Source: an uncultured Solirubrobacteraceae bacterium (lineage in GTDB: Bacteria > Actinomycetota > Thermoleophilia > Solirubrobacterales > Solirubrobacteraceae). From it: 64,000 nt of DNA. The DNA lies in the NCBI GenBank assembly GCA_963835525.1, contig CAWIFM010000007.1, positions 58,984-122,983 on the forward strand, given 5' to 3'. The notes below the pieces were generated by a model. It saw nothing but the letters and a program-made list of their open reading frames with translations. It did not search any database and had not been told where the DNA came from. Positions 2,465-60,246 of the stretch are shown here, piece by piece (the first letter of the stretch is position 1; each line of letters begins with the position of its first letter). The translations under genes were made by a program, and so were the position numbers.

Positions 2465-3361
2465 GTGATGGTGACGGTCACGGCGAAATCCTTAGGAGGC
2501 GCGACGTCCCCGGCGGCTGATGCGCACGGTGTGCGTGGCGGCCGCGTGGATGATGTGGATGTCGGTCGGGCTCATGGGAGGCATACTCCCGCCGCGGTCC
2601 CGGCCGGGATATCGCGCTGCCCAGCGTCTCGCGGTTCGGGTCGCCACTGGACGCGTACGGGAAGCCGCACCGCGCTGATCCTGCTCGTGGCGCTGGCCGG
2701 CTGCGGCGGCTCGTTGCAGCCGGTCGACCCGGGGCCGCGCCAGGCCGAGGCGGGTGCCGAGAAGACGCGCCCCGGGACCGCGCTGGCCGCGCTCCAGCGG
2801 CTTCCCGTCAAGGGCCGTGCGCCGAAGACGGGCTTCGACCGCGAGCAGTTCGGCGGCGACTGGGCGAGCGTCGACGGCTGCGACACGCGCGAGCGGATCC
2901 TCGAGCGCGACCTGCGCCGGATCGCGCGCGAGCCCGGCGGCGACTGCGAGGTGCAGAGCGGCGACCTCGCCGACCCGTACACGGCGAGCGCGATCCGCTT
3001 CGAGCGGGGCGGCGCCTCCGAGGTCGACATCGACCATGTCGTCGCACTCGGCGACGCGTGGCAGACCGGCGCCCAGCAGTGGAGCTTCGAGCGGCGCGTC
3101 CGGTTCGCCAACGACCCGCTCAACCTGCTCGCCGTCGACGCGTCGGCCAACCGCCAGAAGGGCGACAGCGACGCCGCGAGCTGGCTGCCGCCCAACAAGG
3201 CCTTCCGCTGTGCCTACGTCGCCCGCCAGATCGCGGTCAAGCGGCGCTACCGCGGCTGGGTCACGCTCGCCGAGCACGACGCGATGGAGCGCGTCCTCGC
3301 GCCGTGCCCGCGGACGCGGTTGCCCCTCAGGTCTGAGCGATCACCAGCACCATCGTCGTGA
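2465..3361 (+). CDS. DUF1524/HNH-type nuclease domain protein with lipoprotein-like signal (putative extracytoplasmic nuclease)
   Basis: Lipobox-like LILLVALAGCGG. The C-terminal region DIDHVVALGDAW...NLLAVDASANRQKGDSDAASWLPP is typical of the GmrSD-C/DUF1524 HNH fold. The start is uncertain: in-frame GTG/ATG occur at 2465, 2468, 2531, 2546 and 2555. Confidence 0.7.
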   Translation: MMVTVTAKSLGGATSPAADAHGVRGGRVDDVDVGRAHGRHTPAAVPAGISRCPASRGSGRHWTRTGSRTALILLVALAGCGGSLQPVDPGPRQAEAGAEKTRPGTALAALQRLPVKGRAPKTGFDREQFGGDWASVDGCDTRERILERDLRRIAREPGGDCEVQSGDLADPYTASAIRFERGGASEVDIDHVVALGDAWQTGAQQWSFERRVRFANDPLNLLAVDASANRQKGDSDAASWLPPNKAFRCAYVARQIAVKRRYRGWVTLAEHDAMERVLAPCPRTRLPLRSERSPAPSS

Positions 3362-11576: not shown

Positions 11577-11804
11577 GTGTCGAGCGATGTCCCGTTGGGC
11601 ACCCCTAGTCGCTACCGTGAGGCGCCCGTGAGCGCCGAGCCTGAGCCCCACGACCCCCAGCGCTGCACCGCCTGCCGCGGCACCGGCCAGGTGATCTCCG
11701 GGCTGGGCGGCACGCCGCAGTCCGTCACGTGCCCGTGGTGCGGGGGCAGCGGCCGCTTCCAGACCGGGCACGACGCCCAGGCCGCAAAGCGCCCTAGCGA
11801 ATAA
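11577..11804 (+). CDS. small DnaJ-type zinc-finger protein (two CxxCxGxG motifs)
   Basis: 75 aa containing CTACRGTG and CPWCGGSG, i.e. two CxxCxGxG repeats as in the DnaJ zinc-binding domain. Codons are GC3-rich. Confidence 0.55.
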   Translation: MSSDVPLGTPSRYREAPVSAEPEPHDPQRCTACRGTGQVISGLGGTPQSVTCPWCGGSGRFQTGHDAQAAKRPSE

Positions 11805-12177
11805 CCAGCGTCCCGATCTGCTGGTCGGCCTCGACCAGCTCGATCGGGTACTCGCCGGGCGCGCCGGCCAGCAGCGAGAAGCGCGCGGGCGATTCCGGGT
11901 CGATCGTGTCCATGCGATCGAGCAGCATGATGCTGTCGCGCTCGGGACCTGAGATCGTCAGCTCGACGAGATCGCCCTCGTTCACGGTCACGTCGGCGTC
12001 CGACGTCGTGAGCTCCTTCTCGACCCTGGCCAGCGTGGGCGACCCCGCCGGGGCGGGCGTGGTGGAGGCCTCGCCGCGCTCCCGCTCCGTCGCGGGTTGG
12101 CGCGGAGCGACGCTCGCCGCGAGCGCCGCCATGCCCATCAAGACGGCGACGAGGATCAGGAAGCGCCGGCCCAACAT
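11794..12177 (-). CDS. secreted/membrane-anchored hypothetical protein (small beta-rich domain)
   Basis: 127 aa with N-terminal anchor MLGRRFLILVAVLMGMAALAASVA. Transcribed divergently from pilA. Confidence 0.5.
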   Translation of the reverse strand: MLGRRFLILVAVLMGMAALAASVAPRQPATERERGEASTTPAPAGSPTLARVEKELTTSDADVTVNEGDLVELTISGPERDSIMLLDRMDTIDPESPARFSLLAGAPGEYPIELVEADQQIGTLVIR

Positions 12178-12267
12178 GGACCCGAGGGTAGTCCGGTTGT
12201 CCAGTTAACAGGTAATGAGGGGTTAAGGACCCGGCCGCAGGTGCCGATACGGGTGGTGCCAGAACCA

Positions 12268-12352
12268 AGGTGTCAAAGGCAAATCGTCCGCGAGGGCGAG
12301 GCGCAAAGCCACGGAGCTCCTCGGATGGGAGCAAGCCGGGTTGCCACCGCCA
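12268..12352 (+). promoter_or_regulatory. candidate c-di-GMP-I (GEMM-I) riboswitch aptamer in the pilA leader
   Basis: GGCAAA (12278-83). GNRA hairpin CGUCC-GCGA-GGGCG (12285-98). AGGCGCAAAGCC (12299-310). Second hairpin GCUCC...GGAGC (12316-32). GGGUUGCC (12338-45), whose UUGCC pairs with GGCAA at 12278-82. The order and sequence match the conserved GEMM-I core as I recall it. Not verified with a covariance model. Confidence 0.65.
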
Positions 12353-12425
12353 GTGGTGGGACTGGGACCGAGGCCTGGCAGACGGAACTCAAAGGCCCAA
12401 CATCCCTTCAGGAGGGACCACCCAC

Positions 12426-12860
12426 ATGCTGCACAAGCTTCGCCAGCGCGCCCAGAGCGAGAAGGGCTTCACCCTGATCGAGCTCCTGGTCGTCATTCTG
12501 ATCATCGGCATCCTCGCCGCGATCGCTCTCCCCGCCTTCCTCGGCCAGCGCGCCCGTGCGCAGGACACCGAGGGCAAGACGGCTGTCCGTCAGGCTCAGA
12601 CCGCCATCGAGACCTTCTACACGGACAACCAGACCTACGTCGCCACCGAGGCGCAGCTCGAGGACATCGAGCAGTCGCTGGCCTCCGGCGCCGGCGCTTC
12701 GCTGGCCGTGACCGCCACGAGCCCCACGGCGTACACGCTGACGGTCACCTCCGTGACCGGCAACACGTTCTCGATCGCCAAGGCCGGGACCGGCACCGTG
12801 ACCCGCTCCTGCGTGCGTAACAACACGAAGGGCGGCTGCCCGGCCAGCCTCGCCTGGTAA
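12426..12860 (+). CDS. pilA: type IV pilin (prepilin-type N-terminal cleavage/methylation domain)
   Basis: MLHKLRQRAQSEKG|FTLIELLVVILIIGILAAIALPAF: class III signal peptide with Gly-1, Phe+1 and Glu+5. The SD GGAGGGA lies 8 nt upstream of ATG 12426. Confidence 0.9.
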   Translation: MLHKLRQRAQSEKGFTLIELLVVILIIGILAAIALPAFLGQRARAQDTEGKTAVRQAQTAIETFYTDNQTYVATEAQLEDIEQSLASGAGASLAVTATSPTAYTLTVTSVTGNTFSIAKAGTGTVTRSCVRNNTKGGCPASLAW

Positions 12861-12884
12861 GCAAGCCGTACCCAAGCCGTATCG

Positions 12885-12910
12885 CGAAGCGGGCCTCCGG
12901 GCCCGCTTCG
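12885..12910 (+). terminator. stem-loop terminator after pilA
   Basis: Perfect 11-bp GC-rich stem CGAAGCGGGCC / GGCCCGCUUCG with a 4-nt loop UCCG, followed by UCGUU. It lies 25 nt after the pilA stop. Confidence 0.65.
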
Positions 12911-12956
12911 TCGTTAACCCCTCAAGACGCCCCGGCCGGAGGCCGATATCACCATC

Positions 12957-14009
12957 GTGTTCAAGAAGCGTTCCTCCTCCCAGGCCGCGATCGTCGGCCT
13001 CGACCTCGATCCCGGCCACATCGCCGCCGCCGAGGTAACCGTCAACGGGTCGCTGTCGCTCAAGCGCGGCGCCGTCGCTCCCCTTCGTCCCGGCGTCCTG
13101 CGCGACGGTGAGGTCGCCGACGTCCCCGCTCTGGCGGAGGCGCTGAAGACCTTCTTCGCCGAGAACGGGCTCTCGAACCGGGTCCGGCTCGGCATCGCCA
13201 ACCAGCGGATCGTGGTCCGCACGCTGGACCTGCCGCCGCTGGAGGACGAGAAGTCGCTCGCCGCCGCGGTCAAGGTGCAGGCGCCCGACCACATCCCGAT
13301 GCCGATGGACGAGGCGATCCTCGACTGGCAGTCGCTCGGCACGGTCCTGTCGCCGTCCGGACAGCCGCGCACGCGCGTGGTCGTCGTCGCCGTCCGACGC
13401 GAGATGATCGACAAGCTGGTCGCCGCCTCGCGCGAGGCCGGCCTCAAGCTCGAGGGCATCGACCTGTCGGCGTTCGGCATGGTCCGCGCGCTCGCCGGCG
13501 GCCAGAAGGCCCAGGGCGCCGTGCTCTACATCAGCGTCGGCGGTCTCACCAACGTCGCCGTCGCCAACGCCAGCGGGTGCCTGTTCACGCGCGCCGCGGC
13601 CGGCGGCCTCGACGCGATGGTCCACACGCTCTCCGAGCGCCGCGGCCTCACGCTCGAGCACGCCCGCCAGTGGATGACCCACGTCGGGCTGCTCACGGAC
13701 CTCGAGGACGTCGACGGCGACCCCGACCTCGTGGGCGCCGCCCGCACGGTGCTGGAGGAGGGCGTGCACCAGCTCGCCGACACCGTCCGCAACTCGCTCA
13801 ACTTCTACCGCATGCAGGAGAGCGCCGAGCAGGTGGAGACCGGCGTGCTCACGGGTCCCGCCGTGGCCATCCCCGGCTTCGTCGAGCAGCTCTCCGAGCA
13901 GCTGCGCCTGCCGCTCGAGTCCGCCGTGGTCGCCTCGCAGGACGAGGACGCCGACCTCGGTCGCCTCACCGTGGCGGCCGGCCTCGCGGTCGAGAACGCC
14001 GTCGCCTGA
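12957..14009 (+). CDS. pilM: type IV pilus assembly protein PilM (actin-like ATPase fold)
   Basis: 350 aa. AIVGLDLDPGHIAAAEV N-terminus and overall PilM/FtsA-like pattern. Located in the pil locus. Confidence 0.9.
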   Translation: MFKKRSSSQAAIVGLDLDPGHIAAAEVTVNGSLSLKRGAVAPLRPGVLRDGEVADVPALAEALKTFFAENGLSNRVRLGIANQRIVVRTLDLPPLEDEKSLAAAVKVQAPDHIPMPMDEAILDWQSLGTVLSPSGQPRTRVVVVAVRREMIDKLVAASREAGLKLEGIDLSAFGMVRALAGGQKAQGAVLYISVGGLTNVAVANASGCLFTRAAAGGLDAMVHTLSERRGLTLEHARQWMTHVGLLTDLEDVDGDPDLVGAARTVLEEGVHQLADTVRNSLNFYRMQESAEQVETGVLTGPAVAIPGFVEQLSEQLRLPLESAVVASQDEDADLGRLTVAAGLAVENAVA

Positions 14010-14749
14010 TGCTCGCAGCGGTCGTCGGCGCGGTCTTCGGCTCGTTCCTGAACGTGGTGGCCTACCGGCTGCCCCGGGGCGAGTCGCTGTCGCGCCCGCG
14101 ATCGCGCTGCCCGCAGTGCCAGACCCAGATCAAGGCCTACGACAACGTCCCGGTCCTGTCCTGGCTGGCACTGCGCGGCCGCTGCCGCACCTGCCGCACG
14201 CCTATTTCCGCCCGCTATCCGCTAGTAGAGGCCGTGACCGGTCTCCTGTGCGCGCTGGTCGTCTATGACCAGGGACTCGACGAGGACGCGATCCTCGGCG
14301 TCGTCCTGGTGCTGCTGCTGGTCCCGATCACGCTGATCGACCTCGATCACCGGATCATCCCCAACAAGCTCACGCTGCTGGGGGCCGTGCTCGCCCCGGC
14401 GATCGTGGCCTTCACGGCGCCGGACGCCATCCCCGAGCACCTGATCGCGGGAGCCGCGGCGGGAGGCGCTTTCCTGCTGGTCGTCTTCGCATACCCGCGG
14501 GGGATGGGGATGGGCGACGTCAAGCTCGCCGCCGTCCTTGGCCTCTTCCTCGGCCGCGACGTCGTCCCCGCGCTCTTCCTCGCGTTCCTCGTCGGCACCC
14601 TCGTAGGGGCCGCGATCATCGCTCGCAAGGGCTCCGCGGAAGGCCGCAAGACGGCCGTCCCGTTCGGCCCGTTCCTCGCCTTCGGCGGGGTCGTCGCCCT
14701 CTTCGCGGGCGACGCGATGGTCGACTGGTACCTCACCACCTTCATCTAG
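14009..14749 (+). CDS. pilD: prepilin peptidase (A24 family)
   Basis: ATG at 14009 overlaps the pilM stop by 1 nt. Zn-finger pairs CPQC...CRTC, the catalytic Asp region ITLIDLDHRIIPN and the GMGMGDVKL motif are present. Confidence 0.9.
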   Translation: MLAAVVGAVFGSFLNVVAYRLPRGESLSRPRSRCPQCQTQIKAYDNVPVLSWLALRGRCRTCRTPISARYPLVEAVTGLLCALVVYDQGLDEDAILGVVLVLLLVPITLIDLDHRIIPNKLTLLGAVLAPAIVAFTAPDAIPEHLIAGAAAGGAFLLVVFAYPRGMGMGDVKLAAVLGLFLGRDVVPALFLAFLVGTLVGAAIIARKGSAEGRKTAVPFGPFLAFGGVVALFAGDAMVDWYLTTFI

Positions 14750-14810
14750 GGCGTCGACCCCACGAGCACGCCTCAAGGCGCGCTCATGGGGTGCCGATAA
14801 GCCAAGCGAG

Positions 14811-15674
14811 ATGAAGGCCATCAACCTGCTCCCCCCCGACCTTCGCGGCACGCCCAAGAGCGCTGCCCCGAAGGCCGCCATCGCCCCCGCAGAGCCGGGC
14901 GGCATCGGCGCCTTCGTGGTGCTCGGCGCGCTCGCCGCATGCGTTGTCGCGCTCGCCGCGTACGTGCTCACGACCAACACGGTCAAGGACCGTGCGGCGC
15001 AGCTGGAGGCGGTCACCGCCCAGGCCGATGCCACCCGCTCAGCCGTCAGCCAGCTCAAGCCGTACGCCGACTTCCAGGCGATGGCCGAGACCCGCATCCA
15101 GACCGTCAAGGACCTCGCGTCCTCGCGCTTCGACTGGGAGCAGGCGCTGCGCGACATCTCGCGCGCCGTCCCCGCCGAGGTCACGCTGCGCGAGCTCAAC
15201 GGCACGATCTCCAGCGACACGGGAGGCAGCGGCCTCCGCAGCGCGATCGCCGCTCCGGCGATCGAGCTCAAGGGCTGCAGCTCCGGCCAGACGCAGGTCG
15301 CCACGCTGATGTCGCGCCTGCGCAGCGTCGACGGCGTCTCCCGCGTCAGCCTCAACAAGTCGCTCAAGCCCGACAAGTCGCAGATCTCCGGGGCCGCCTC
15401 GCCGATCGCGGGCGTCGCCCAGGCCGACGGCTGCAAGGGCAAGCGCCCGCCGAACTTCGAGATCGTCATGTTCTTCGAGGGCGCCGAGGTCCCCGCCACG
15501 GTCGAGGACATCACCGTCCAGCCGGGCGCCGGCAGCGGCACCGCGCCGAGCGCCGAGGGCACGACCGCCTCGACCGAGGGGGAGGCCGGTGGCGTCACCA
15601 CGCCGCCGAGCGTGCCCGAGGGTGACGACTCCGCCACGCCCGCCTCGACGCCCGAGGGAGGGGCAGCCCAATGA
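14811..15674 (+). CDS. pilN: PilN-like pilus assembly protein (long, low-complexity C-terminus)
   Basis: MKAINLLPPDL start typical of PilN, one TM segment, then a coiled coil. The C-terminal ~90 aa are Pro/Thr/Gly/Ala-rich. Confidence 0.75.
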   Translation: MKAINLLPPDLRGTPKSAAPKAAIAPAEPGGIGAFVVLGALAACVVALAAYVLTTNTVKDRAAQLEAVTAQADATRSAVSQLKPYADFQAMAETRIQTVKDLASSRFDWEQALRDISRAVPAEVTLRELNGTISSDTGGSGLRSAIAAPAIELKGCSSGQTQVATLMSRLRSVDGVSRVSLNKSLKPDKSQISGAASPIAGVAQADGCKGKRPPNFEIVMFFEGAEVPATVEDITVQPGAGSGTAPSAEGTTASTEGEAGGVTTPPSVPEGDDSATPASTPEGGAAQ

Positions 15675-16426
15675 CCCGCTCGAACAAGATCCTGCTGTCG
15701 GTGGTAGCGCTCGGCGCCGCCATCGCCGCCTTCTACTTCTTCGTCCTCTCGCCCAAGCGTGAGGAGGTCGCCAAGCTCGACACCGGCATCACGGCCCAGA
15801 AGGCCGAGATCGAGCAGGCGCGGCTGACGCTCGCCGGCTACGAGCAGGCCAAGAAGACCTACAAGAAGAACTACGCGACGCTCGCCCGCCTCGGCAAGGC
15901 CGTGCCGGCCGACGACGACGTGCGCTCGCTGCTGGTGCAGCTGGAGTCCACCGCCAATCGCAGCGGCGTCACCTTCGAGAAGATCGAGTTGGCGAACAAC
16001 CTCGGCGGTGAGGCTGCGGCGACGACCGGCGCGGCGACGCCCGCGGCGGGCCAGCTCGCCTCGGCCCCGGGCACCGTCCCGGTCGCCGGCGGCGTCCTGT
16101 CCGCGATGCCGTTCAGCTTCAGCTTCACCGGCTCGTACTTCGACCTGACGGCGTTCTTCGCCCGGCTCGAGCACTACGTGAGCCTCAACAACGCCAAGCT
16201 CGACTCGACCGGTCGCCTGATGCGCCTCGAGAGCATCTCGATCACGCCGTCGGCCCTCGGGTTCCCGGACATGATGGCCGAGATCAACGCCGCGACCTAC
16301 CTCGTCCCGCCCGTCCAGGGCGTCGACGCGGGCGCGCCGTCGAGCGACGCCCAGAACGTCACGGGCGAGCCCGGGACGACCCCGCCCACCACTACCGCGT
16401 CCGCCAATTCCGGAGCCTCCCGATGA
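15671..16426 (+). CDS. pilO: PilO-like pilus assembly protein
   Basis: ATGA overlap with pilN. N-terminal TM (ILLSVVALGAAIAAFYFFVL), coiled coil, then a ferredoxin-like core. Low-complexity tail. Confidence 0.75.
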   Translation: MTRSNKILLSVVALGAAIAAFYFFVLSPKREEVAKLDTGITAQKAEIEQARLTLAGYEQAKKTYKKNYATLARLGKAVPADDDVRSLLVQLESTANRSGVTFEKIELANNLGGEAAATTGAATPAAGQLASAPGTVPVAGGVLSAMPFSFSFTGSYFDLTAFFARLEHYVSLNNAKLDSTGRLMRLESISITPSALGFPDMMAEINAATYLVPPVQGVDAGAPSSDAQNVTGEPGTTPPTTTASANSGASR

Positions 16427-17199
16427 ACGCCGTCACCACCATCTGGCGCCAGCTCGTGCGCAACAAGCTCTGGCCCGTCGCCGTGCTGCTGCTGGCCGCG
16501 CTCGTCGCCGTCCCCGTGCTGCTGGCCCGTGAGCCCGCCGTGCCGGAGACGATCGCTCCGGTGGCCGTGAACACGGAGGCCGACGACAGCATCGCCGAGC
16601 CGATCGTGGCCAAGATCACCCCGGAGGACCGCAACCGCCGCCGCCGCGTGCTCGGCGTCCGCAAGGACCCGTTCCGCCCGGCCCCGGTCAAGGAGCCCAA
16701 GGTCGAGCAGCCGGAGACCCCCGACGCGACCACGATCGGCGACCCGCCCCCCGGTGACACCGGCAGCGGCGGCGGCGGCGAGCCCGCCGAGGCTCCCGTG
16801 TTCTACGAGCCGGGGACGATCATCGTGCGCTTCGGCGACGCGACGAATTCCCAGCTCACGCGCTTCGCGATCCCGAAGCTCGGACCGGTGCCCGACGACG
16901 AGTTCCCGCTGCTCGTGTACATGGGCCTGACCAAGAACGGCAAGAAGGCCAAGTTCCTGGTCGACGCCGCCCTCGAGGTCGACGGCGACGGCACCTGCAA
17001 GCCGCACCCGTCGAACTGCGAGGTCATCGAGCTCGCGGTCGGCGAGACCGAGTTCCTCGACGTCATCAACCCGGAGACCTCCGACGAGGAGGAGACCACC
17101 GAGGAAGAGACGGCCGAGGAGACCGAGCCGGAGGTCCTCGCGACCTTCCAGCTCGACCTCGTCGACATCAAGCGCGCCGGCGACTCAGACGTCAAGTAG
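16423..17199 (+). CDS. PilP-position membrane-anchored protein (KDPF motif, acidic C-terminal tail)
   Basis: ATGA overlap with pilO. N-terminal TM, RKDPFRP motif resembling the (R/K)DPF motif of PilP-family proteins, and tail DEEETTEEETAEETEPE. Function is inferred from position only. Confidence 0.55.
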   Translation: MNAVTTIWRQLVRNKLWPVAVLLLAALVAVPVLLAREPAVPETIAPVAVNTEADDSIAEPIVAKITPEDRNRRRRVLGVRKDPFRPAPVKEPKVEQPETPDATTIGDPPPGDTGSGGGGEPAEAPVFYEPGTIIVRFGDATNSQLTRFAIPKLGPVPDDEFPLLVYMGLTKNGKKAKFLVDAALEVDGDGTCKPHPSNCEVIELAVGETEFLDVINPETSDEEETTEEETAEETEPEVLATFQLDLVDIKRAGDSDVK

Positions 17200-17205
17200 G
17201 GGTAT

Positions 17206-18426
17206 GTGTCACCCGCCGCGGCTCCTGGTGAGCCGCGGCGGATAGCCTTCACCGGCGTGCCGCTGCGCGTCGTCACAGCCGGGGAGTCCCACGGGCCCGG
17301 GCTGACCTGCATCGTCGAGGGCCTGCCCGCGGGCCTCGAGCTCGACCTGTCCGCGATCGACCGCGACATGGCGCGCCGCCAGCTCGGCCACGGCCGCGGT
17401 GGGCGCATGAAGATCGAGCGCGACAGCGCCGAGATCACCTCCGGGGTCCGCCACGGCCGCACGCTCGGCGGCCCGATCGCCGTGCGGGTCGCCAACCGCG
17501 ACTACGCCAACTGGGAGGAGCGGATGAACCCGTGGCCGGTCGAGGCCGAGGTGCCCGAGGTGCACCTCCCGCGCCCCGGTCACGCCGACCTCGCGGGCGT
17601 GCAGAAGTTCGGCTTCACCGACGTGCGCAACGTGCTCGAGCGCGCCAGCGCCCGCGAGACGGCCGCGCGCGTGGCCGGCGGGGCGCTGGCCAAGGGCTTC
17701 CTGGCCGCGCTCGGCGTGCAGGTGTTCTCGAACGTCACGCAGATCGGCTCGGTCCGGGCGACTGAGTCCGGCGGCCTTGCGCCGGCCGACTTCGCCGACG
17801 TCGACGCATCGCCCGTGCGCTGCCTCGACGCCGAGGCATCGAAGGCGATGGTCGAGGAGATCAACGTGCTGCGCAAGGCCAACGAGTCGCTCGGCGGCGT
17901 CTTCGAGGTGCGCGCCTTCGGCGTCGTTCCAGGCCTCGGCTCGCACGTGAGCTGGGAGGAGCGGCTGGACGGCCGGATCGGCATGGCCATGCTCTCGATC
18001 CAGGCCATCAAGGGCTGCGGGATCGGCGACGGGTTCGACCTCGCGGGCCGGCCCGGCTCCGCCGCGCACGACGAGATCTTCTACTCCGACGAGCGCGGCT
18101 ACTACCGCGAGACCAACCGCTCGGGCGGCATCGAGGGCGGCATGACGACCGGCGAGCCGCTGATCGTGCGCTGCGCGATGAAGCCGCTGCCGACGCTCAC
18201 CAAGCCGCTGCGGTCGGTCGACATCGCCACGCGCGAGCCGGCGCAGGCGCTGCGCGAGCGGACCGACTCGTGCACGGTTCCGGCGGCGGGCGTGGTGGGG
18301 GAGGCGATGCTGGCCATCGTGCTGGCCGACGCCTACCGCGCGAAGTTCGGAGGCGACCACATCGACGACGTCCGCGCCGCCGTGGAGGCCTACGAGCGGC
18401 GCATCGGATGGAAGCCTCGAACCTAG
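17206..18426 (+). CDS. aroC: chorismate synthase
   Basis: LRVVTAGESHGPGL..., GRSSARETA-like region (ERASARETAARVA) and GGISNG-like GGIEGGMTTGEP. The start is probably the in-frame GTG at 17257. Confidence 0.95.
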   Translation: MSPAAAPGEPRRIAFTGVPLRVVTAGESHGPGLTCIVEGLPAGLELDLSAIDRDMARRQLGHGRGGRMKIERDSAEITSGVRHGRTLGGPIAVRVANRDYANWEERMNPWPVEAEVPEVHLPRPGHADLAGVQKFGFTDVRNVLERASARETAARVAGGALAKGFLAALGVQVFSNVTQIGSVRATESGGLAPADFADVDASPVRCLDAEASKAMVEEINVLRKANESLGGVFEVRAFGVVPGLGSHVSWEERLDGRIGMAMLSIQAIKGCGIGDGFDLAGRPGSAAHDEIFYSDERGYYRETNRSGGIEGGMTTGEPLIVRCAMKPLPTLTKPLRSVDIATREPAQALRERTDSCTVPAAGVVGEAMLAIVLADAYRAKFGGDHIDDVRAAVEAYERRIGWKPRT

Positions 18427-21411: not shown

Positions 21412-21461
21412 GGCCCCGAACCCACTCAAGCCCTCGGCGCGGTAAGCCGATACCGGGGGCG

Positions 21462-23009
21462 ATGGAACTCCGAGCCCGCATTCGCCCAACGCTGCGCCAC
21501 GCCGGCCTTATGGCCGCGGCCGCCGCACTGCTGGTGCCCGTCACGGGCACGGCCACCGCCACCGCAAAAAGCGCCCCCGTCGTCAAGAGCGTCGCGCCGA
21601 AGAAGGTCTTCGTCGGCGAGACGATGAAGATCCGCGGACGCCACTTCCGCCGCGGCGTCAACAAGAACATGGTCGCCTTCAAGCGCAAGGGCGCGAAGGC
21701 CGTCCTGGTGCCGGCGGGGCGCGGAACCACCAAGCTTCTGATGGTCGAGCTGCCCAAGCGGCTCGAGAAGATCCTGCTCGTCCAGAACGGCACGCCGGTG
21801 GCGACGCCGCTGCAGGTCCGCGTGATGTCCTCGCGGTTCGGCAAGCGCTACACCAGCCGTTCCAAGTCGCCGCTCGTCGGCCCTGAGAAGCCGCCGGCGC
21901 CGCCGAAGCCCAAGGCCGCCAACCCGAACGGCGACTGTGACGGCGACGGCCAGATCAACCGCGTCGACACCGACGACGACAACGACCTGCTGACCGACGA
22001 CGTCGAGAAGGGCTACGACCTCGACGGCTGCAAGGCCGACACCGACGGCGACAAGGTCGAGGACGGCTACGAGTACCAGTCCGCTCGCGACCTCAACGAC
22101 GACGAGCACCAGACGCCCAATGACTACATCCCGTATCCGGAGAAGCGTCCGTACCCGAACGCGCTCGACAAGACGGACTCCGGTACCGACCACGACGGCG
22201 ACGACCTGACGCTGCTCGAGGAGTACCGGCTCTGGAAGGTCACGCTCGCGAACGGCGCGCCGCGCACGCTCGCCGGGCTCGGCTACTCCGCCGGTGAGCA
22301 GTACTCGGTCAACGTGCGCCAGGGTGGCAACGGCAACCGCGTCCCGACGCTCATGGCTGCCGGCTACGACAAGCAGATCGCCTTCCTGGGCTGGGCCGCC
22401 TCGACGGGCTACGCCACGATCGGCCTGTCGCCGGTCCCGGGCTTCTTCGACGACCCGGACACCGACGACATCGCCGAGTACTGGGAGCCGCGCGAGTTCC
22501 GCGACGTCCGCGACATGAACCGCGACAACGTCCTCCAGTCCTACGAGGAGACGTACTACGACTTCGACCAGACCGGCCGCCTCAGCGACAGCGAGCGCGA
22601 CGAGGACGCCGACGGCCTCAGCAACTGGGCCGAGACGCGCGGCTGCATGAACCCGAAGTACTGGGAGGGCGTCTACGACAAGGAGACGCCGTACTACCTC
22701 AGCTATAGCGGCACGCAGCTCGACGACGCCGACACCGACGGTGACGGCATCCGCGACGGCGCCGACGACCAGGACCACGACGACGTGCCGAACCTGATGG
22801 AGTGCTCGCGCGTGCTCGCCTCCGGCGTGGCCGCCGACCCCGTCGACGAGGAGCAGGGCGACCCGCACCGCGTGTGGAAGGGCTTCGTGAACCCCTTCAA
22901 CCCGTGCCTGCCGCACGTCAAGTCGCGTACCTGCAAGGTCATCGTCCCCGTGGACAACGCGTGGGCGCCGTTCAACGCCGAGGACGAGTACTACCTCATC
23001 CGGTTCTAG
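21462..23009 (+). CDS. secreted IPT/TIG-domain protein with thrombospondin type-3-like Ca-binding repeats
   Basis: Signal peptide, then an IPT-like segment (VKSVAPKKVFVGETMKIRGRHF). Multiple DxDxDGxxDxxD-type repeats follow (DCDGDGQINRVDTDDDND, DTDGDKVEDG, DEDADGLSNW, DTDGDGIRDGADDQDHDD). Confidence 0.8.
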   Translation: MELRARIRPTLRHAGLMAAAAALLVPVTGTATATAKSAPVVKSVAPKKVFVGETMKIRGRHFRRGVNKNMVAFKRKGAKAVLVPAGRGTTKLLMVELPKRLEKILLVQNGTPVATPLQVRVMSSRFGKRYTSRSKSPLVGPEKPPAPPKPKAANPNGDCDGDGQINRVDTDDDNDLLTDDVEKGYDLDGCKADTDGDKVEDGYEYQSARDLNDDEHQTPNDYIPYPEKRPYPNALDKTDSGTDHDGDDLTLLEEYRLWKVTLANGAPRTLAGLGYSAGEQYSVNVRQGGNGNRVPTLMAAGYDKQIAFLGWAASTGYATIGLSPVPGFFDDPDTDDIAEYWEPREFRDVRDMNRDNVLQSYEETYYDFDQTGRLSDSERDEDADGLSNWAETRGCMNPKYWEGVYDKETPYYLSYSGTQLDDADTDGDGIRDGADDQDHDDVPNLMECSRVLASGVAADPVDEEQGDPHRVWKGFVNPFNPCLPHVKSRTCKVIVPVDNAWAPFNAEDEYYLIRF

Positions 23010-25764: not shown

Positions 25765-25821
25765 CGCAAACGCGTCTGGTTCCGCTACACGATCCGCGCC
25801 ACGATCGGCCCTATGCCCGCC

Positions 25822-25864
25822 GATTGGTCACTTTGTTCCCGCCACGGGAACAAAGCGACCAATC
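25822..25864. repeat. 43-bp near-perfect inverted repeat (20-bp arms, 3-nt spacer)
   Basis: GATTGGTCACTTTGTTCCCG-CCA-CGGGAACAAAGCGACCAATC, with one arm mismatch (A/G). It lies immediately upstream of the likely GTG start (25867) of the DUF559 gene. Confidence 0.85.
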
Positions 25865-25866
25865 GA

Positions 25867-26727
25867 GTGGCTCAGCTCGCGGCAGCTCAGTGGGGCGTGC
25901 TCTCGTTCGACGAGCTGGGCTCGTGCGGCCTCACCCGCAAGGAGGTGATGACTCGCGTCCGCAACGGGCATCTCCACCCCCTTTACCGCGGGGTTTACGC
26001 CGTGGGCCACACCAACCTCACGCGGGAGGGCGCATTCCTGGCCGCCGTCAAGGCCTGCGGCCCCACAGCGCACCTCAGCCACTACTCGGCCGCCGCGCTT
26101 TACGGCCTCGTCCGCTGGGACTATCGCTACCCAGAGGTCACGGTCACAGGCAAGAGACGCCACGCAGGCATCCGAACGCACCGCACGACGATCCCCGACG
26201 CCACCCACCACCAGGGCATCCCCATCACCACCCCCGCCCGCACCCTCATCGACCTCGCCGGCCAGCTCGACTACGGACCGCTACGCAGAGCCGTTCGCGA
26301 AGCCCAACGCCACCTGGTCACGATCCCGCAGATCCTGACCACGCTCGACCGGCTCGGCCCCCGCCCCGGCATCGCCAACCTCACCAAGATCCTCGCCACC
26401 GGCCACGCCCCCACCCGAAGCGAACTCGAAGACGCCGTCCTCGATCTCCTCCTTAATGCGGGGTTCCAACAACCCGACATCAACCAACCGATACGAATCC
26501 AAGGCCGCCGCATCGTCCCCGACTTCAGATGGCCACACGAACACCTGGTCATCGAAGCCGACGGCGCGCACTGGCACGACAACCGCCTCACCCGCGAAGA
26601 CGACGCCGAAAAGCAGGCCATCCTCGAAGCCCACGGCGAACGCGTCATCCGCATCAGCTGGCCCCAAGCCATCATCCAACGCCCCCAGACCCTCAACCGA
26701 ATCAAAGCCGCCGGCGCACCCACCTAA
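25867..26727 (+). CDS. DUF559 (Vsr-like endonuclease fold) domain protein with AbiEi-like N-terminal region
   Basis: N-terminus VAQLAAAQWGVLSFDELGSCGL...LHPLYRGVYAV. C-terminal PDFRWPHEHLVIEADGAHWHDNRLTREDDAEKQAILEAHGERVIRISW is the DUF559 signature. The track ORF starts at 25813, inside the palindrome. The coding strand is C-rich and G-poor, unlike its neighbours. Confidence 0.8.
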   Translation: MAQLAAAQWGVLSFDELGSCGLTRKEVMTRVRNGHLHPLYRGVYAVGHTNLTREGAFLAAVKACGPTAHLSHYSAAALYGLVRWDYRYPEVTVTGKRRHAGIRTHRTTIPDATHHQGIPITTPARTLIDLAGQLDYGPLRRAVREAQRHLVTIPQILTTLDRLGPRPGIANLTKILATGHAPTRSELEDAVLDLLLNAGFQQPDINQPIRIQGRRIVPDFRWPHEHLVIEADGAHWHDNRLTREDDAEKQAILEAHGERVIRISWPQAIIQRPQTLNRIKAAGAPT

Positions 26728-39744: not shown

Positions 39745-40680
39745 ATGGCCGTCGCCGCACCCACCCAGCCGTTCGAGCACCTGCTGCTCGACTTCCTCGC
39801 CTACCTGGAGTTCGAGCGCGGGCTGTCGCGCAACACGCTCGAGGCCTACCGGTCCGACCTGCTCCAGCTCGGCGGCCACCTGCGCAAGACGGGCAAGGAC
39901 GCGCTGGAGGCGACCCACACCGACCTCGCCGACTTCATCGCCGACCTGGCCGCCGGCGACGCGGACCGCCCGCCGGTCTCGCCGGCCACGATCCAGCGCA
40001 AGGTCGCCTGCCTGCGCTCCTTCTACCGCCACCTGCGCCGGCAGGACCTGATCGTCGACGACCCGACGGTGCATCTGCGCGCCCCCAAGCAGGGTCGCAA
40101 GCTGCCGCAGGTCCTCTCGCGCGACGAGGTGGCCAAGCTGCTCGAGGCGCCGCGCGGGACCGAGCCGGCCGCGCTGCGCGACCGCGCCCTGCTGGAGCTG
40201 ATGTACGCCTGCGGGCTGCGGGCGTCGGAGGCGATCGGGCTCGAGACCGGCGACCTCGACCTCGAGAGCGGGATCCTGCGCGCTCGCGGCAAGGGCTCCA
40301 AGGAGCGGCTCGTGCCGATCGGCTCCGCCGCCTCGCGCGCGCTGGAGATCTATCTCGGCCGCGGCCGGCCGAAGCTGGTCGGCGACCGGATGGAAGGCCG
40401 GCTGTTCGTCAACCACCGCGGCGGCGGGCTGACCCGTCAGGGCCTCTACAAGATCGTCCAGCGCCACGCGCGCACGGCCGGGCTCGACGGCAAGATGAGC
40501 CCGCACACGCTGCGCCACACCTTCGCCACCCACCTGCTGGCCGGCGGCTGCGACCTGCGCTCGCTGCAGGAGATGCTCGGCCACGCCGACATCGCCACCA
40601 CCCAGGTCTACACGCACATGTCCGCGGAGCGCCTCAAGGACGTCTACCACGACGCCCACCCCCGCGCACGGCAGCACTAA
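39745..40680 (+). CDS. xerD: site-specific tyrosine recombinase XerD
   Basis: FLAYLEFERGLSRNTLEAYRSDL, ELMYACGLRASE, HTLRHTFATHLL and LGHADIATTQVYTH (the R-H-R-Y catalytic set). Confidence 0.9.
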   Translation: MAVAAPTQPFEHLLLDFLAYLEFERGLSRNTLEAYRSDLLQLGGHLRKTGKDALEATHTDLADFIADLAAGDADRPPVSPATIQRKVACLRSFYRHLRRQDLIVDDPTVHLRAPKQGRKLPQVLSRDEVAKLLEAPRGTEPAALRDRALLELMYACGLRASEAIGLETGDLDLESGILRARGKGSKERLVPIGSAASRALEIYLGRGRPKLVGDRMEGRLFVNHRGGGLTRQGLYKIVQRHARTAGLDGKMSPHTLRHTFATHLLAGGCDLRSLQEMLGHADIATTQVYTHMSAERLKDVYHDAHPRARQH

Positions 40681-55687: not shown

Positions 55688-56062
55688 TCAGGAGGTGGCG
55701 CCGATGCGATCCACCAGGCGCAGCAGATGCAGAGGCGAGAAGGGCTTCGTGAGGAAGAGATCGGCGCCCGCCGCCAGCGCGCCGCGCTCGGCCTGCGGCC
55801 CCGACGCGCCGGTGAGCATCACTATCGTCGCGCCCGCCGTGGCGGGGTCCGAGCGCAGCCGCCGGCACGCCTCGATCCCGTTCAGCTGCGGCATGTCGAC
55901 GTCGAGGAAGACGATCTCCGGCCGCGCCTCGACCGCCACGGCCACCGCCTCGGCGCCGTCGGCCGCCTCCTGCAGCCGGTAGCCGGACACGTCCTCGAGC
56001 GTCGTGGCGATCAGCTTGCGGATCCCGGGATCGTCGTCGACGATCAGGATCGTCCGGGTCAC
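55688..56062 (-). CDS. single-domain response regulator (CheY-like receiver)
   Basis: ILIVDDDPGIRKL..., phosphoacceptor context IVFLDVDMPQLNG, then MLTG and FLTKPF. The GTG start at 56062 overlaps the HD-GYP stop (GTGA). Confidence 0.85.
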   Translation of the reverse strand: MTRTILIVDDDPGIRKLIATTLEDVSGYRLQEAADGAEAVAVAVEARPEIVFLDVDMPQLNGIEACRRLRSDPATAGATIVMLTGASGPQAERGALAAGADLFLTKPFSPLHLLRLVDRIGATS

Positions 56063-56811
56063 GCGACCCCGTCCCGCAGGGCCGCGAACCGCGAGTCCGG
56101 GATCGTTTCGAGGGCCTTGACCACCGCGGGGTCGAACTGCGAGCCGGAGCACGCGCGAATCTCCTCACGCGCGCGAGAGAAGCGCGTGCCGCGGCGGTAC
56201 GGCCGGTCGGTGGTGAGGGCGTCGAGCGCGTCGGCCACGGCGAAGACGCGCGCCGCGAGCGGGATCTCCTCGCCGGCCAGCCGGTCGGGGTAGCCGGCCC
56301 CGTCCCAGCGCTCGTGGTGGTGGCGCACCACCAGCTTGCCCTCGCCGAGGAAGTCGACGTCGCGCAGGATGTCCGAGCCGATGATCGGGTGCTGGGCGAT
56401 CAGGGCGAACTCGGACTCGTCGAGCTTGGCCGGCTTGAAGAGGATCGCGTCGGGCACCGCGACCTTGCCGACGTCGTGCAGCAGGAAGCCGAACTCGATG
56501 CCGGGCGCGAGGTCCGTGTCCAGACCCGAGGCCCGGGCGAGCGCGATCCCGTAGGCGGTCACGCGCTCGGCGTGCTTGCCGGTGTAGGCGTCGCGCGCCT
56601 CGACCGCGTTCGAGAGCGCCTGGACCGTGGCCCGATAGGAGTTGCGCAGCTCGAGCGAGCGGTTGCGCTCCTGCTTGAAGACCTCGCGCAGGTCCGCGGC
56701 GTAGCGCTCCAGCTGGCGCTGGCGGGCGGCCGCCTGTCGCTCCGTGCGCTCAAGCTGCTCACGGAGGTCTCCGGTGTCTATAGCTGTCACCTCGATAGCC
56801 CGTCCTACCAA
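56059..56811 (-). CDS. HD-GYP domain protein (putative c-di-GMP phosphodiesterase) with N-terminal coiled coil
   Basis: HAERV...LLHDVGKVAVP...HHERWDGAGYPDRL...ADALDALTTDRPYR, the full HD-GYP signature. No receiver domain is present. The start is TTG 56811 or GTG 56790. Confidence 0.85.
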   Translation of the reverse strand: MVGRAIEVTAIDTGDLREQLERTERQAAARQRQLERYAADLREVFKQERNRSLELRNSYRATVQALSNAVEARDAYTGKHAERVTAYGIALARASGLDTDLAPGIEFGFLLHDVGKVAVPDAILFKPAKLDESEFALIAQHPIIGSDILRDVDFLGEGKLVVRHHHERWDGAGYPDRLAGEEIPLAARVFAVADALDALTTDRPYRRGTRFSRAREEIRACSGSQFDPAVVKALETIPDSRFAALRDGVA

Positions 56812-58778: not shown

Positions 58779-59956
58779 GGGGCCTGGACCGCCGCTCGCT
58801 CGGCATGCTGGGCGCCGGGCACCTCAGCGTCGACCTGTGCCAGGGCGCCGTGCCCGCCCTGCTCCCGTTCCTGGCCGCCGAGCGCGGCTACTCCTACGCC
58901 GCGCTCGGAGCGCTGGTGCTCTTCTCGACGATCGGCTCCTCGATCGTCCAGCCGCTGTTCGGGCTGCTGTCGGACCGCTTCGCCCGCCCGTGGCTGATGC
59001 CGGTCGGCCTGGCGCTGGCCGGGACCGGGATCGCGCTCGCCGGGCCGGCGCCGAGCTACGCGCTGACCGCCGTCGCGGTGGTGGTCAGCGGACTCGGGGT
59101 GGCGGCCTTCCATCCCGAGGGCGCGAAGTTCGCCGGGCTGGCCTCGCGCGGGCGCGAGGGGCGCGGGATGAGCCTGTTCTCGGTCGGCGGCAACGCCGGG
59201 TTCGCGCTCGGCCCGCTGCTCACGACGCCGCTCGTGCTGATCTTCGGGCTGTCCGGCACGCTGGCGCTGGCCGTGATCCCGCTGTGCGCCGCCGTGCTGA
59301 TCTCGCGCGAGCTCGGCCGGCTGCGCGAGCTCGAGGGCGGCTCGGACGCCGACGCGCTCGGTGGCGAGGACGACTGGAGCGCCTTCAGCCGGCTCGGCGG
59401 AGTGATCGCCCTGCGCTCGGGTGTCTACTTCGGCCTGCAGGCGTTCATCCCGGCCTACTTCGTCGCCGAGCTGAGCACCAGCGAGGCGGCCGGCAACGGC
59501 GCCCTCACGCTCATGCTGGCCATGGGTGCCGTGGGGACGCTGGTCGGAGGCGGGCTCGTCGACCGCTGGGGGGCGCGGACCGTCCTCGTCGGGACCCAGA
59601 TCCTGCTGCTGCCACTGCTCTTCGTCCTGCCGCTGACCGGCGCCGCGGCCGCCACCGCGCTGCTCGGGCTCATCGGCTTCGTGACGATCGCCAGCTTCTC
59701 GATCACGATCGTGCTCGGCCAGGCCTACCTGCCCAATCGGACCGGGCTCGCCTCCGGCATCACGCTCGGCCTGGCGATCGGTCTCGGCGGCCTGGCGGCC
59801 ACCGCGCTCGGAGTGGTGGCCGACGCCGAGGGCCTGCCCGCCGTCCTGTGGGTGATCGCCATCCTGCCCGTGCCGTCGCTCCTGCTCGGCCTCAGCCTTC
59901 CGACCGAGCGCCGTAGAGGTCTGGTCGCGGAGCCTGCGGGTAACAAGGGAGCTTGA
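58775..59956 (+). CDS. MFS transporter
   Basis: About 12 TM segments and the MFS loop motif GLLSDRFARP. The start is TTG 58775 (TTGA overlap with the upstream gene) or ATG 58805. It is the C-terminal part of track ORF 57449..59956. Confidence 0.85.
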   Translation: MRGLDRRSLGMLGAGHLSVDLCQGAVPALLPFLAAERGYSYAALGALVLFSTIGSSIVQPLFGLLSDRFARPWLMPVGLALAGTGIALAGPAPSYALTAVAVVVSGLGVAAFHPEGAKFAGLASRGREGRGMSLFSVGGNAGFALGPLLTTPLVLIFGLSGTLALAVIPLCAAVLISRELGRLRELEGGSDADALGGEDDWSAFSRLGGVIALRSGVYFGLQAFIPAYFVAELSTSEAAGNGALTLMLAMGAVGTLVGGGLVDRWGARTVLVGTQILLLPLLFVLPLTGAAAATALLGLIGFVTIASFSITIVLGQAYLPNRTGLASGITLGLAIGLGGLAATALGVVADAEGLPAVLWVIAILPVPSLLLGLSLPTERRRGLVAEPAGNKGA

Positions 59957-60246
59957 TGATCGACCAGCGCCGGACGCCCCGGATCGAGATCGAGATGCCG
60001 TGCACGCTGCATCGCCGCAGCGGGTCGCCGATCGAGGGCCGCACGGTCGACCTCGGGCCGGGCGGGATGCGCGTGTGCACCAAGCGCCCGCTGGCGGCCG
60101 ACGAGACCCTGCGCTTCGAGCTGCAGGGCATCGACGGCCGCGCACGGGTGCTGCGCCAGCAGAGCCGCGACACCTACGCGGTCCGCTTCGAGATGCTCGC
60201 CGAGCAGGCGCTCGCGGAGCTGCGGCGGCTCACCGTGCCTGCTTGA
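59956..60246 (+). CDS. single-domain PilZ protein (putative c-di-GMP receptor)
   Basis: QRRTPRIEI (RxxxR) followed by DLGPGGM (a DxSxxG-like motif), the two halves of the PilZ c-di-GMP binding signature. ATG 59956 overlaps the MFS stop (TGATG). Confidence 0.7.
   Translation: MIDQRRTPRIEIEMPCTLHRRSGSPIEGRTVDLGPGGMRVCTKRPLAADETLRFELQGIDGRARVLRQQSRDTYAVRFEMLAEQALAELRRLTVPA

Follow-up and report, generated by a model that had tools for sequence, protein, structure and literature searches.

The association of GEMM riboswitches with pilus genes has been known since the discovery of the family in 2007 (PMC1950547), and here we compare with the closest described systems a riboswitch of this family, predicted to sense cyclic di-GMP (c-di-GMP), in the leader of the type IV pilin gene pilA in a 64-kb stretch of DNA from an uncultured soil bacterium of the family Solirubrobacteraceae (contig CAWIFM010000007.1; the whole stretch is called the window below). 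The type example of the Rfam family RF01051 (c-di-GMP-I, or GEMM-I) is Vc2 of V. cholerae, in which one guanine of the ligand is recognised at its Hoogsteen edge by G20 and the other pairs with C92; GEMM-Ib, which senses cyclic GMP-AMP (cGAMP), is distinguished by an A in place of G20 (PMC6140456). In Geobacter, GEMM-I and GEMM-Ib copies are associated with the pilus genes pilM, pilO and pilQ (PMC1950547), many of them being cGAMP sensors with A20, often in tandem, and transcriptional. The pilA1 gene of C. difficile is controlled by a class-II switch (PMC6366702), Cdi-2-4, which switches transcription ON and contains an intrinsic terminator. Lastly, the type IV pilus cluster of Rubrobacter radiotolerans has three promoters of the WhiG/sigma-28 type, and c-di-GMP arms RsiG to sequester WhiG in the complex (RsiG)2-(c-di-GMP)2-WhiG, a switch that acts via proteins at transcription initiation (PMC8325347).

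The element in the window shares with Vc2 its architecture, the junction bases G20, A47 and C92, a GNRA tetraloop and a site in the 5' untranslated region (UTR), and differs from it in a GYRA-type loop, the lack of the 11-nt tetraloop receptor, a P1 helix of only 4 bp, a host from the Thermoleophilia and an unrelated expression platform. As with Cdi-2-4, a c-di-GMP riboswitch stands directly 5' of a Gram-positive major type IV pilin gene, but here it is of class I, no terminator was found in the leader and control is probably translational. The Geobacter copies belong to the same aptamer family and share the association with pilus genes, whereas in the window's group G20 is invariant, there is one aptamer per gene and the target is the pilin. 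With R. radiotolerans the locus has in common the c-di-GMP signal and a predicted promoter motif found three times in the type IV pilus cluster of a basal actinobacterium (PMC8325347), to which the window adds a riboswitch after the predicted pilA promoter. We hold with high confidence that the pilA leader is best explained by a class-I c-di-GMP riboswitch in a 5' UTR of about 170 nt, combined with probable translational control and a probable WhiG-type promoter; a second c-di-GMP input through that promoter is a more tentative proposal, to which we return below.

The whole window was scanned against Rfam 15 at gathering thresholds and gave two matches, one to a tRNA and one to RF01051 (61.1 bits, the gathering score being 35, E-value 1.7e-9 for the 64 kb, full model 1-87). 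The initial annotation, made from the sequence, had proposed a GEMM-I riboswitch and named as its check an Infernal match to RF01051 above the gathering threshold on the + strand at about 12270-12350; the match lies at 12268-12348 on that strand (Table 1). A permissive scan of positions 12100-12500 (E-value up to 10) found no family beyond the c-di-GMP-I clan and no c-di-GMP-II (RF01786). The GEMM-I identity is further supported by the ligand-contact bases, by covarying helices and by the 5'-UTR position before a pilin gene, and since every feature of RF01051 that can be checked in a sequence is present, we regard the element, at the level of sequence, as a genuine class-I c-di-GMP riboswitch.

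All of the motifs that had been listed are in place: GGCAAA at 12278-83, CGUCC-GCGA-GGGCG at 12285-98, AGGCGCAAAGCC at 12299-310, the interrupted hairpin at 12312-38 and GGGUUGCC at 12338-45. The first hairpin grows to 6 bp through U12284-A12299, with compensatory changes in three of its six pairs, and its tetraloop is of GYRA type in all homologues (GCGA, GUGA or GCAA). The GC of GGCAAA (G12279-C12280) pairs in the family consensus with G12303-C12304, forming a 2-bp part of this hairpin. In P2, A12315 stands in an internal loop opposite A12333, A12334 and G12335, and the receptor positions are gaps in the Rfam alignment; this is usual in aptamers with a GYRA tetraloop, and the combination is an established GEMM-I subtype (PMC1950547). 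The junction had been thought to be closed by GGCAA with UUGCC, which does not hold: the consensus P1 pairs GGUG with CACC, and the GGCAA/UUGCC pairing turns up only when the aptamer is folded by itself, in its minimum-free-energy structure (-34.3 kcal/mol, against -32.8 kcal/mol for the consensus fold). All four P1 pairs are kept in homologues, three of them with compensatory changes in the metagenomic set. With a GC content of 65%, the aptamer lies on the strand of pilA, and 77 nt separate its end from the ATG.

We expect the aptamer to bind c-di-GMP and not cGAMP, because the bases predicted to contact the ligand are canonical, G12278, A12305 and C12344 corresponding to G20, A47 and C92 of Vc2 and being invariant in 21 homologues. 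What might be held against this is that, in a scan of the small region, the variant family RF03167 (c-di-GMP-I-GGC) reached a better E-value than RF01051, and that RF03167 passes its own gathering score in four relatives, so we considered whether the aptamer could sense 3',3'-cGAMP as a GEMM-Ib or belong to a variant class (c-di-GMP-I-GGC or -UAU). We judge this very improbable. Position 20 is G where GEMM-Ib has A, and RF03167 scores 56.5 bits here, below its gathering score of 59, mainly doing so well because its model also includes P1. The equivalence of A12305 to A47 was deduced from the consensus lines of RF03167 and RF01051, which differ in the first A of CGC-AAA. At this variant-defining position the window carries A12305 and not G, so the aptamer is of the canonical type and not the GGC variant, and this A and the G at position 20 are both invariant (PMC6140456).

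Conservation in relatives ties the aptamer to the pilin. RF01051 or, where its E-value was better, its clan relative RF03167 scores above gathering at the equivalent site 5' of the pilin in 18 related genome loci, with 75-110 nt between aptamer and pilin start. We also scanned metagenomes for the pattern CGCAAARCC followed after 140-170 nt by codons for GFTLxE, which gave 120 loci, and applied a covariance model built from the 21 genomic aptamers to the first 100 of these; it found 74 aptamers, all high in GC, 5' of pilins of several leader-peptide families. In 95 of 95 homologues (21 genomic and 74 metagenomic) the aptamer stands 5' of a type IV pilin gene on the same strand, and none was found at loci without a major pilin before pilM or at minor-pilin genes. 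When the 21 genomic aptamers were aligned without regard to structure, 98.3% of cells were paired and five pairs showed compensatory changes, slid controls giving 31-48%. For the 74 metagenomic homologues the figures were 96.8% and 17 of 24 pairs (slid controls 30-48%), in an alignment fitted to the covariance model, which favours the structure. From these patterns we take the aptamer to be real, maintained by selection and linked to the major pilin. That it resembles the family by chance, or is a relic that has decayed and regulates nothing, can be given next to no weight, being contradicted by the E-value of the match, by conservation through compensatory changes in 95 sequences and by the strict linkage to the major pilin.

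Some of these loci differ in arrangement. In L006 and L009 the unit of promoter, aptamer and pilin is present twice, in tandem; the tandem pilin regions lie at 2574-3505 in L006, 2578-3508 in L009 and 2669-3492 in L016. The second pilin copy of L016 shares the promoter motif and the Shine-Dalgarno (SD) region (AGGAGGGACCACCCACAAUG) but lacks an aptamer. Among the metagenome loci L056-L155, GEMM-I aptamers precede at least five pilin leader families (MLHKLR.., MLLKLRQRM.., MFLQNLRAK.., MKRFTKQ.. and MLARIRKA..). In the MLARIRKA group a strong hairpin after the aptamer takes in the 3' strand of P1 (in L118, GGCACCC-GUGA-GGGUGCC), a platform that differs from that of pilA in the window.

Alignment of the 110 nt 5' of all aptamers brought out a second conserved element, TTAAG...GCCGATA, to be compared with the WhiG/sigma-28 promoter consensus T(A/C)AA-N16-GCCGATAA (PMC8325347, PMC12871210). 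The predicted pilA promoter lies 18 nt 5' of P1, and the motif stands 16-20 nt before P1 in 19 of the 21 homologous leaders. Transcription from it would start near 12257 and leave a 5' UTR of about 170 nt; the 248 nt that the initial annotation gave as the leader therefore stand as the intergenic gap between the divergent open reading frame (ORF) and the pilA ATG at 12426, and not as the 5' UTR. Within the window T[ACT]AA-N16-GCCGAT occurs four times against 0.08 expected, always on the + strand, and none of 100 shuffles reached four. All four sites fit T[TC]AA-N16-GCCGATA[ACT], and the three besides that of pilA have an exact TCAA -35; they lie before pilM, pilN and the gene at 21462-23009. 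Related loci have the motif before pilA, pilM and pilN as well, the pilM site being found at the same place in about 30 of them, and on the opposite strand it occurs only once in about 500 kb. Because the three sites other than that of pilA end 7-10 nt before start codons, the transcripts of pilM, pilN and the 21462 gene may well be leaderless. The latter gene encodes a 515-aa secreted protein (+ strand) with an N-terminal signal-like segment and no Pfam or NCBIfam match, and is a candidate member of the pilus-gene regulon because an exact motif precedes it.

Several points weigh against assigning the pilA promoter to WhiG. It has one mismatch to the consensus in each element, the -35 being TTAA and not T(A/C)AA; neither whiG nor rsiG was found in the 64-kb window; and the call is a prediction from sequence. 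The presence of these two genes in the host is presumed from the finding of WhiG and a single-motif RsiG in Thermoleophilia (PMC8325347). A riboswitch is mentioned neither in the R. radiotolerans WhiG paper (PMC8325347) nor in a 2026 survey of WhiG regulons. The search rules of that survey (an exact -35, no more than 200 bp from the start codon) would pass over the pilA site, in which the -35 reads TTAA and stands 203 nt from the ATG.

How the aptamer acts on pilA was approached through the sequence between P1 and the start codon. Scans of 11700-13100 found neither an intrinsic terminator nor a sigma-70 promoter, and the SD AGGAGGG (12410-16), noted in the initial annotation together with the ATG, stands 9 nt from the AUG and overlaps a conserved hairpin of -6.6 kcal/mol. 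The likeliest mode of control is therefore translational, by masking of the SD and without an intrinsic terminator; Actinomycetota tend to have translational platforms (PMC12452182). Upstream of this hairpin, the platform block GGGACC-GAGG...UGGC...CAGGCCC-AACGAUCCCUUCAGGAGGG (12364-12409, the tail also given as AACGAUCCCUUC) is almost invariant in 35 distinct leaders of the clade, and this is more conservation than a simple SD-masking hairpin needs, the aptamer stems and the pilin being variable. Its pairing options are GGG.CC with GGCCC, or GGGA with UCCC at 12403-06, and in the RNAalifold consensus of the 35 leaders nothing but the GGG.CC/GGCCC helix and the SD hairpin is retained. In the mechanism we propose, transcription of the leader would start at the WhiG/sigma-28-type promoter 18 nt 5' of P1, and binding of c-di-GMP would lock P1 and the junction, thereby changing which 3' segments can pair and setting access to the ribosome-binding site: the conserved anti-SD UCCCUU could close the SD GGAGGG, and the upstream SD-like segments GGGA and GAGG (12364-73) could compete for the anti-SD.

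A different platform had been suggested, in which CCACC (12344-48), GGUGG (12355-59) and CCACC (12418-22) form mutually exclusive pairings. The three segments are present, yet the switch is not borne out. The duplex of GGUGG with the CCACC at 12418-22 is no better than in shuffles (p = 0.28), six related leaders without GGUGG keep CACC before the AUG, and the riboswitch-free second pilin copy of L016 also keeps the SD-to-AUG sequence AGGAGGGACCACCCACAAUG. The possible alternative hairpin of the first CCACC with GGUGG is found in most close relatives (L018 has CCACCGC/GCGGAGG instead), and its role is uncertain because the GGUGG arm is missing in those six leaders. We also considered, and dropped, pairing between UUGCCA at the end of the aptamer and the conserved UGGCA(A) of the platform, which is uncompensated, as judged by eye, in L006b and L009b.

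Several points count against the SD-masking model, among them the failure of the CCACC/GGUGG pairings. The SD hairpin is invariant across leaders, so covariation cannot speak for or against it. As a guide to the direction of the switch, constrained folds of the whole leader (21 leaders) showed no consistent change at the SD and contained spurious long-range pairs. A local model compares folding of the sequence downstream of P1 only with folding that includes the 3' strand of P1. Here, with the P1 3' strand free, the region from SD to AUG was as open or more open in 20 of 21 close leaders, an effect that is small (0.31 against 0.34 in the window), and over 69 diverse pilin leaders the mean difference was 0.008, with 22 up and 11 down. 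The slightly greater openness without P1 in 20 of the 21 close leaders, and the fit with RsiG-WhiG logic (PMC8325347), make us lean, by a little, towards an OFF switch in which c-di-GMP would lower pilin translation. The converse, that binding opens the ribosome-binding site whilst the WhiG promoter is shut off, so that the locus works as a band-pass or pulse generator, has its own precedent in C. difficile, where the riboswitch lets c-di-GMP promote type IV pili (PMC6366702), and it gains from L053 and L054, whose long P1 3' strand (CACCGGGG) overlaps a GGGGUUC otherwise paired with pilin codons 4-5, so that ligand binding there would free the start region. The 69 diverse leaders, which show no consistent direction, leave room for it too. 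Set against it are the same 20 of 21 leaders of the window's clade and its opposition to the RsiG-WhiG logic of relatives (PMC8325347), and we think an ON switch rather unlikely.

That the riboswitch acts on transcription or mRNA fate, by Rho-dependent termination or RNase access, and not on translation initiation, we consider more unlikely still. It would account for the roughly 60-nt block (12364-12409) whose near invariance in 35 leaders goes beyond the needs of SD masking; Rho could load at C-rich stretches that lack structure; and many GEMM-I switches are transcriptional (PMC1950547). No hairpin resembling a terminator and followed by a U tract was found in the leader, however, the SD lies within a conserved hairpin 9 nt from the AUG, and translational platforms are favoured in Actinomycetota (PMC12452182).

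Keeping translational control as the preferred explanation, pilA may receive c-di-GMP input twice, because a predicted WhiG-type promoter precedes the riboswitch and, in related Actinomycetota, c-di-GMP inactivates WhiG via the anti-sigma factor RsiG. Through RsiG, c-di-GMP would withdraw sigma-WhiG from the promoter at 12223-50, and it would also bind the riboswitch on the mRNA to which this promoter gives rise, so that, assuming an OFF switch, the major pilin would be shut down at two levels. Such twofold control of a Solirubrobacterales major pilin, by an RsiG-WhiG promoter and a riboswitch, is a possibility that we put forward as somewhat short of an even chance. From the arrangement of motifs, only pilA appears to have both layers, the pilM and pilN operons having a promoter and no leader. 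With an OFF riboswitch the two levels would form a coherent shut-off, and mRNA already made would be silenced too; with an ON riboswitch, pilin synthesis would be confined to a window or pulse of c-di-GMP.

The surrounding genes are listed in Table 1. Type IV pilus genes follow the aptamer in the order pilA, pilM, prepilin peptidase gene, pilN and pilO; pilB, pilT and pilC were not found in the 64-kb window. The pilA product matches PF07963 (N_methyl, 4.3e-9), PF16732 and TIGR02532, and PilA is the name given in the source to thousands of its homologues. A search with PilM of a genome collection returned 55 loci, the best match being 97% identical, and because nearly all of these are metagenome-assembled genomes of Solirubrobacteraceae or Solirubrobacterales (two contigs, with the labels Gaiellaceae and Thermoleophilaceae, are the exceptions), the host belongs to the class Thermoleophilia of the phylum Actinomycetota. 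The GC-rich hairpin 3' of pilA, also found 3' of the pilin copies in L006, L009 and L016, is likely a terminator or attenuator separating pilA from pilM; the consensus terminator scan missed it because it needs 5 T. A terminator after pilA that limits read-through into the assembly genes would be a further likeness to Cdi-2-4. The initial annotation rightly reported an HD-GYP protein (56059-56811, -) and a PilZ protein (59953-60246, +) in the window; their genes are 3 kb from each other and about 45 kb from the riboswitch.

Table 1. Features of the pilA locus and related features in the window (position 1 is the first letter of the window).
Feature	Position	Strand	Details
Divergent ORF 5' of the pilA leader	11794-12177	-	
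Predicted WhiG/sigma-28-type promoter of pilA	12223-12250	+	-35 TTAA at 12223-26, 16-nt spacer, -10 GCCGATAC at 12243-50
c-di-GMP-I (GEMM-I) riboswitch aptamer	12268-12348	+	RF01051 covariance-model match
P1	12269-12272 with 12345-12348	+	GGUG with CACC, 4 bp; from the RF03167 structure line
Equivalent of Vc2 G20	12278	+	Predicted contact of the first ligand guanine; from the Rfam alignment; invariant in 21 homologues
6-bp hairpin	12284-12299	+	UCGUCC/GGGCGA; tetraloop GCGA at 12290-93 (GNRA, GYRA-type)
Equivalent of Vc2 A47	12305	+	First A of CGC-AAA; invariant; G here would define c-di-GMP-I-GGC
P2 hairpin	12307-12342	+	AGCC-A-CGG-A-GCUCC(U) / (G)GGAGC-AAG-CCG-GGUU
Equivalent of Vc2 C92	12344	+	Predicted Watson-Crick partner of the second guanine; invariant; P1 3' strand CACC 12345-48 is next
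Possible alternative hairpin	12344-12359	+	CCACC-GCCAGU-GGUGG; -8.3 kcal/mol; would compete with P1
Platform block	12364-12398	+	GGGACC-GAGG, variable hairpin with UGGC, then CAGGCCC
SD-sequestering hairpin	12403-12417	+	Anti-SD UCCCUU 12403-08, loop CAG, GAGGGA 12412-17
pilA	12426-12860	+	Type IV pilin, 144 aa; prepilin leader MLHKLRQRAQSEKG/FTLIELLVV
GC-rich hairpin 3' of pilA	12880-12916	+	13 bp, -27 kcal/mol, then UCGUU
Predicted WhiG-type promoter of pilM	12922-12949	+	TCAA-N16-GCCGATAT; -10 ends 7 nt before GTG 12957
pilM	12957-14009	+	Start codon GTG at 12957
Prepilin peptidase gene	about 14000-14749		3' of pilM
Predicted WhiG-type promoter of pilN	14773-14800	+	TCAA-N16-GCCGATAA, exact; 10 nt before ATG 14811
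pilN	14811-15674	+	ATG at 14811
pilO	15671-16426		3' of pilN
WhiG-type promoter	21426-21453	+	Predicted; exact TCAA-N16-GCCGATAC; 8 nt before ATG of the 21462-23009 gene
HD-GYP phosphodiesterase, stand-alone	56059-56811	-	PF13487, motif HHERWDGAGYP
PilZ protein, single-domain	59953-60246	+	97 aa

The ORF directly 3' of pilO (16423-17199, +; 258 aa) occupies the place that PilP or PilQ-like genes take in diderm bacteria, and its product matches nothing in Pfam or NCBIfam. Next come aroC (17206-18426) and a gene in which shikimate kinase (aroK-type) and 3-dehydroquinate synthase (aroB-type) domains are fused. Elsewhere the window encodes a protein with a GmrSD C-terminal domain (2465-3361, +), a protein with AbiEi-like and REase_MTES_1575/DUF559 domains (25813-26727, +) and a tyrosine recombinase of the Phage_integrase family (39745-40680, +), scattered genes that are possible remnants of defence systems or mobile elements.

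The initial annotation had expected a c-di-GMP riboswitch directly gating a type IV pilin in a high-GC actinobacterium-like genome to be noteworthy, and this stands only in part. The riboswitch itself is ordinary, its family, ligand and link to pili being long established; a standard Rfam scan finds it, and automated Rfam-based annotation would flag the aptamer. In high-GC soil metagenomes, moreover, the same pairing is frequent, 74 aptamers having been found in 100 loci. We found no primary report in the literature of this riboswitch in Solirubrobacter or Solirubrobacterales, or of one combined with WhiG, and to our knowledge almost nothing is known of type IV pili or of RNA-based c-di-GMP sensing in uncultured high-GC soil Actinomycetota. 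The pairing of GEMM-I with the major pilin appears widespread in these bacteria, extending over the Solirubrobacterales, a contig labelled Gaiellaceae and several pilin families from metagenomes. The interest of the locus comes mainly from the two-layer control by c-di-GMP that pilA may have in this little-studied lineage: an aptamer directly behind a WhiG-type promoter would be a concrete case of protein- and RNA-based c-di-GMP sensing stacked on one gene and, if true, would extend the RsiG-WhiG model of pilus control from Rubrobacter to its sister class.

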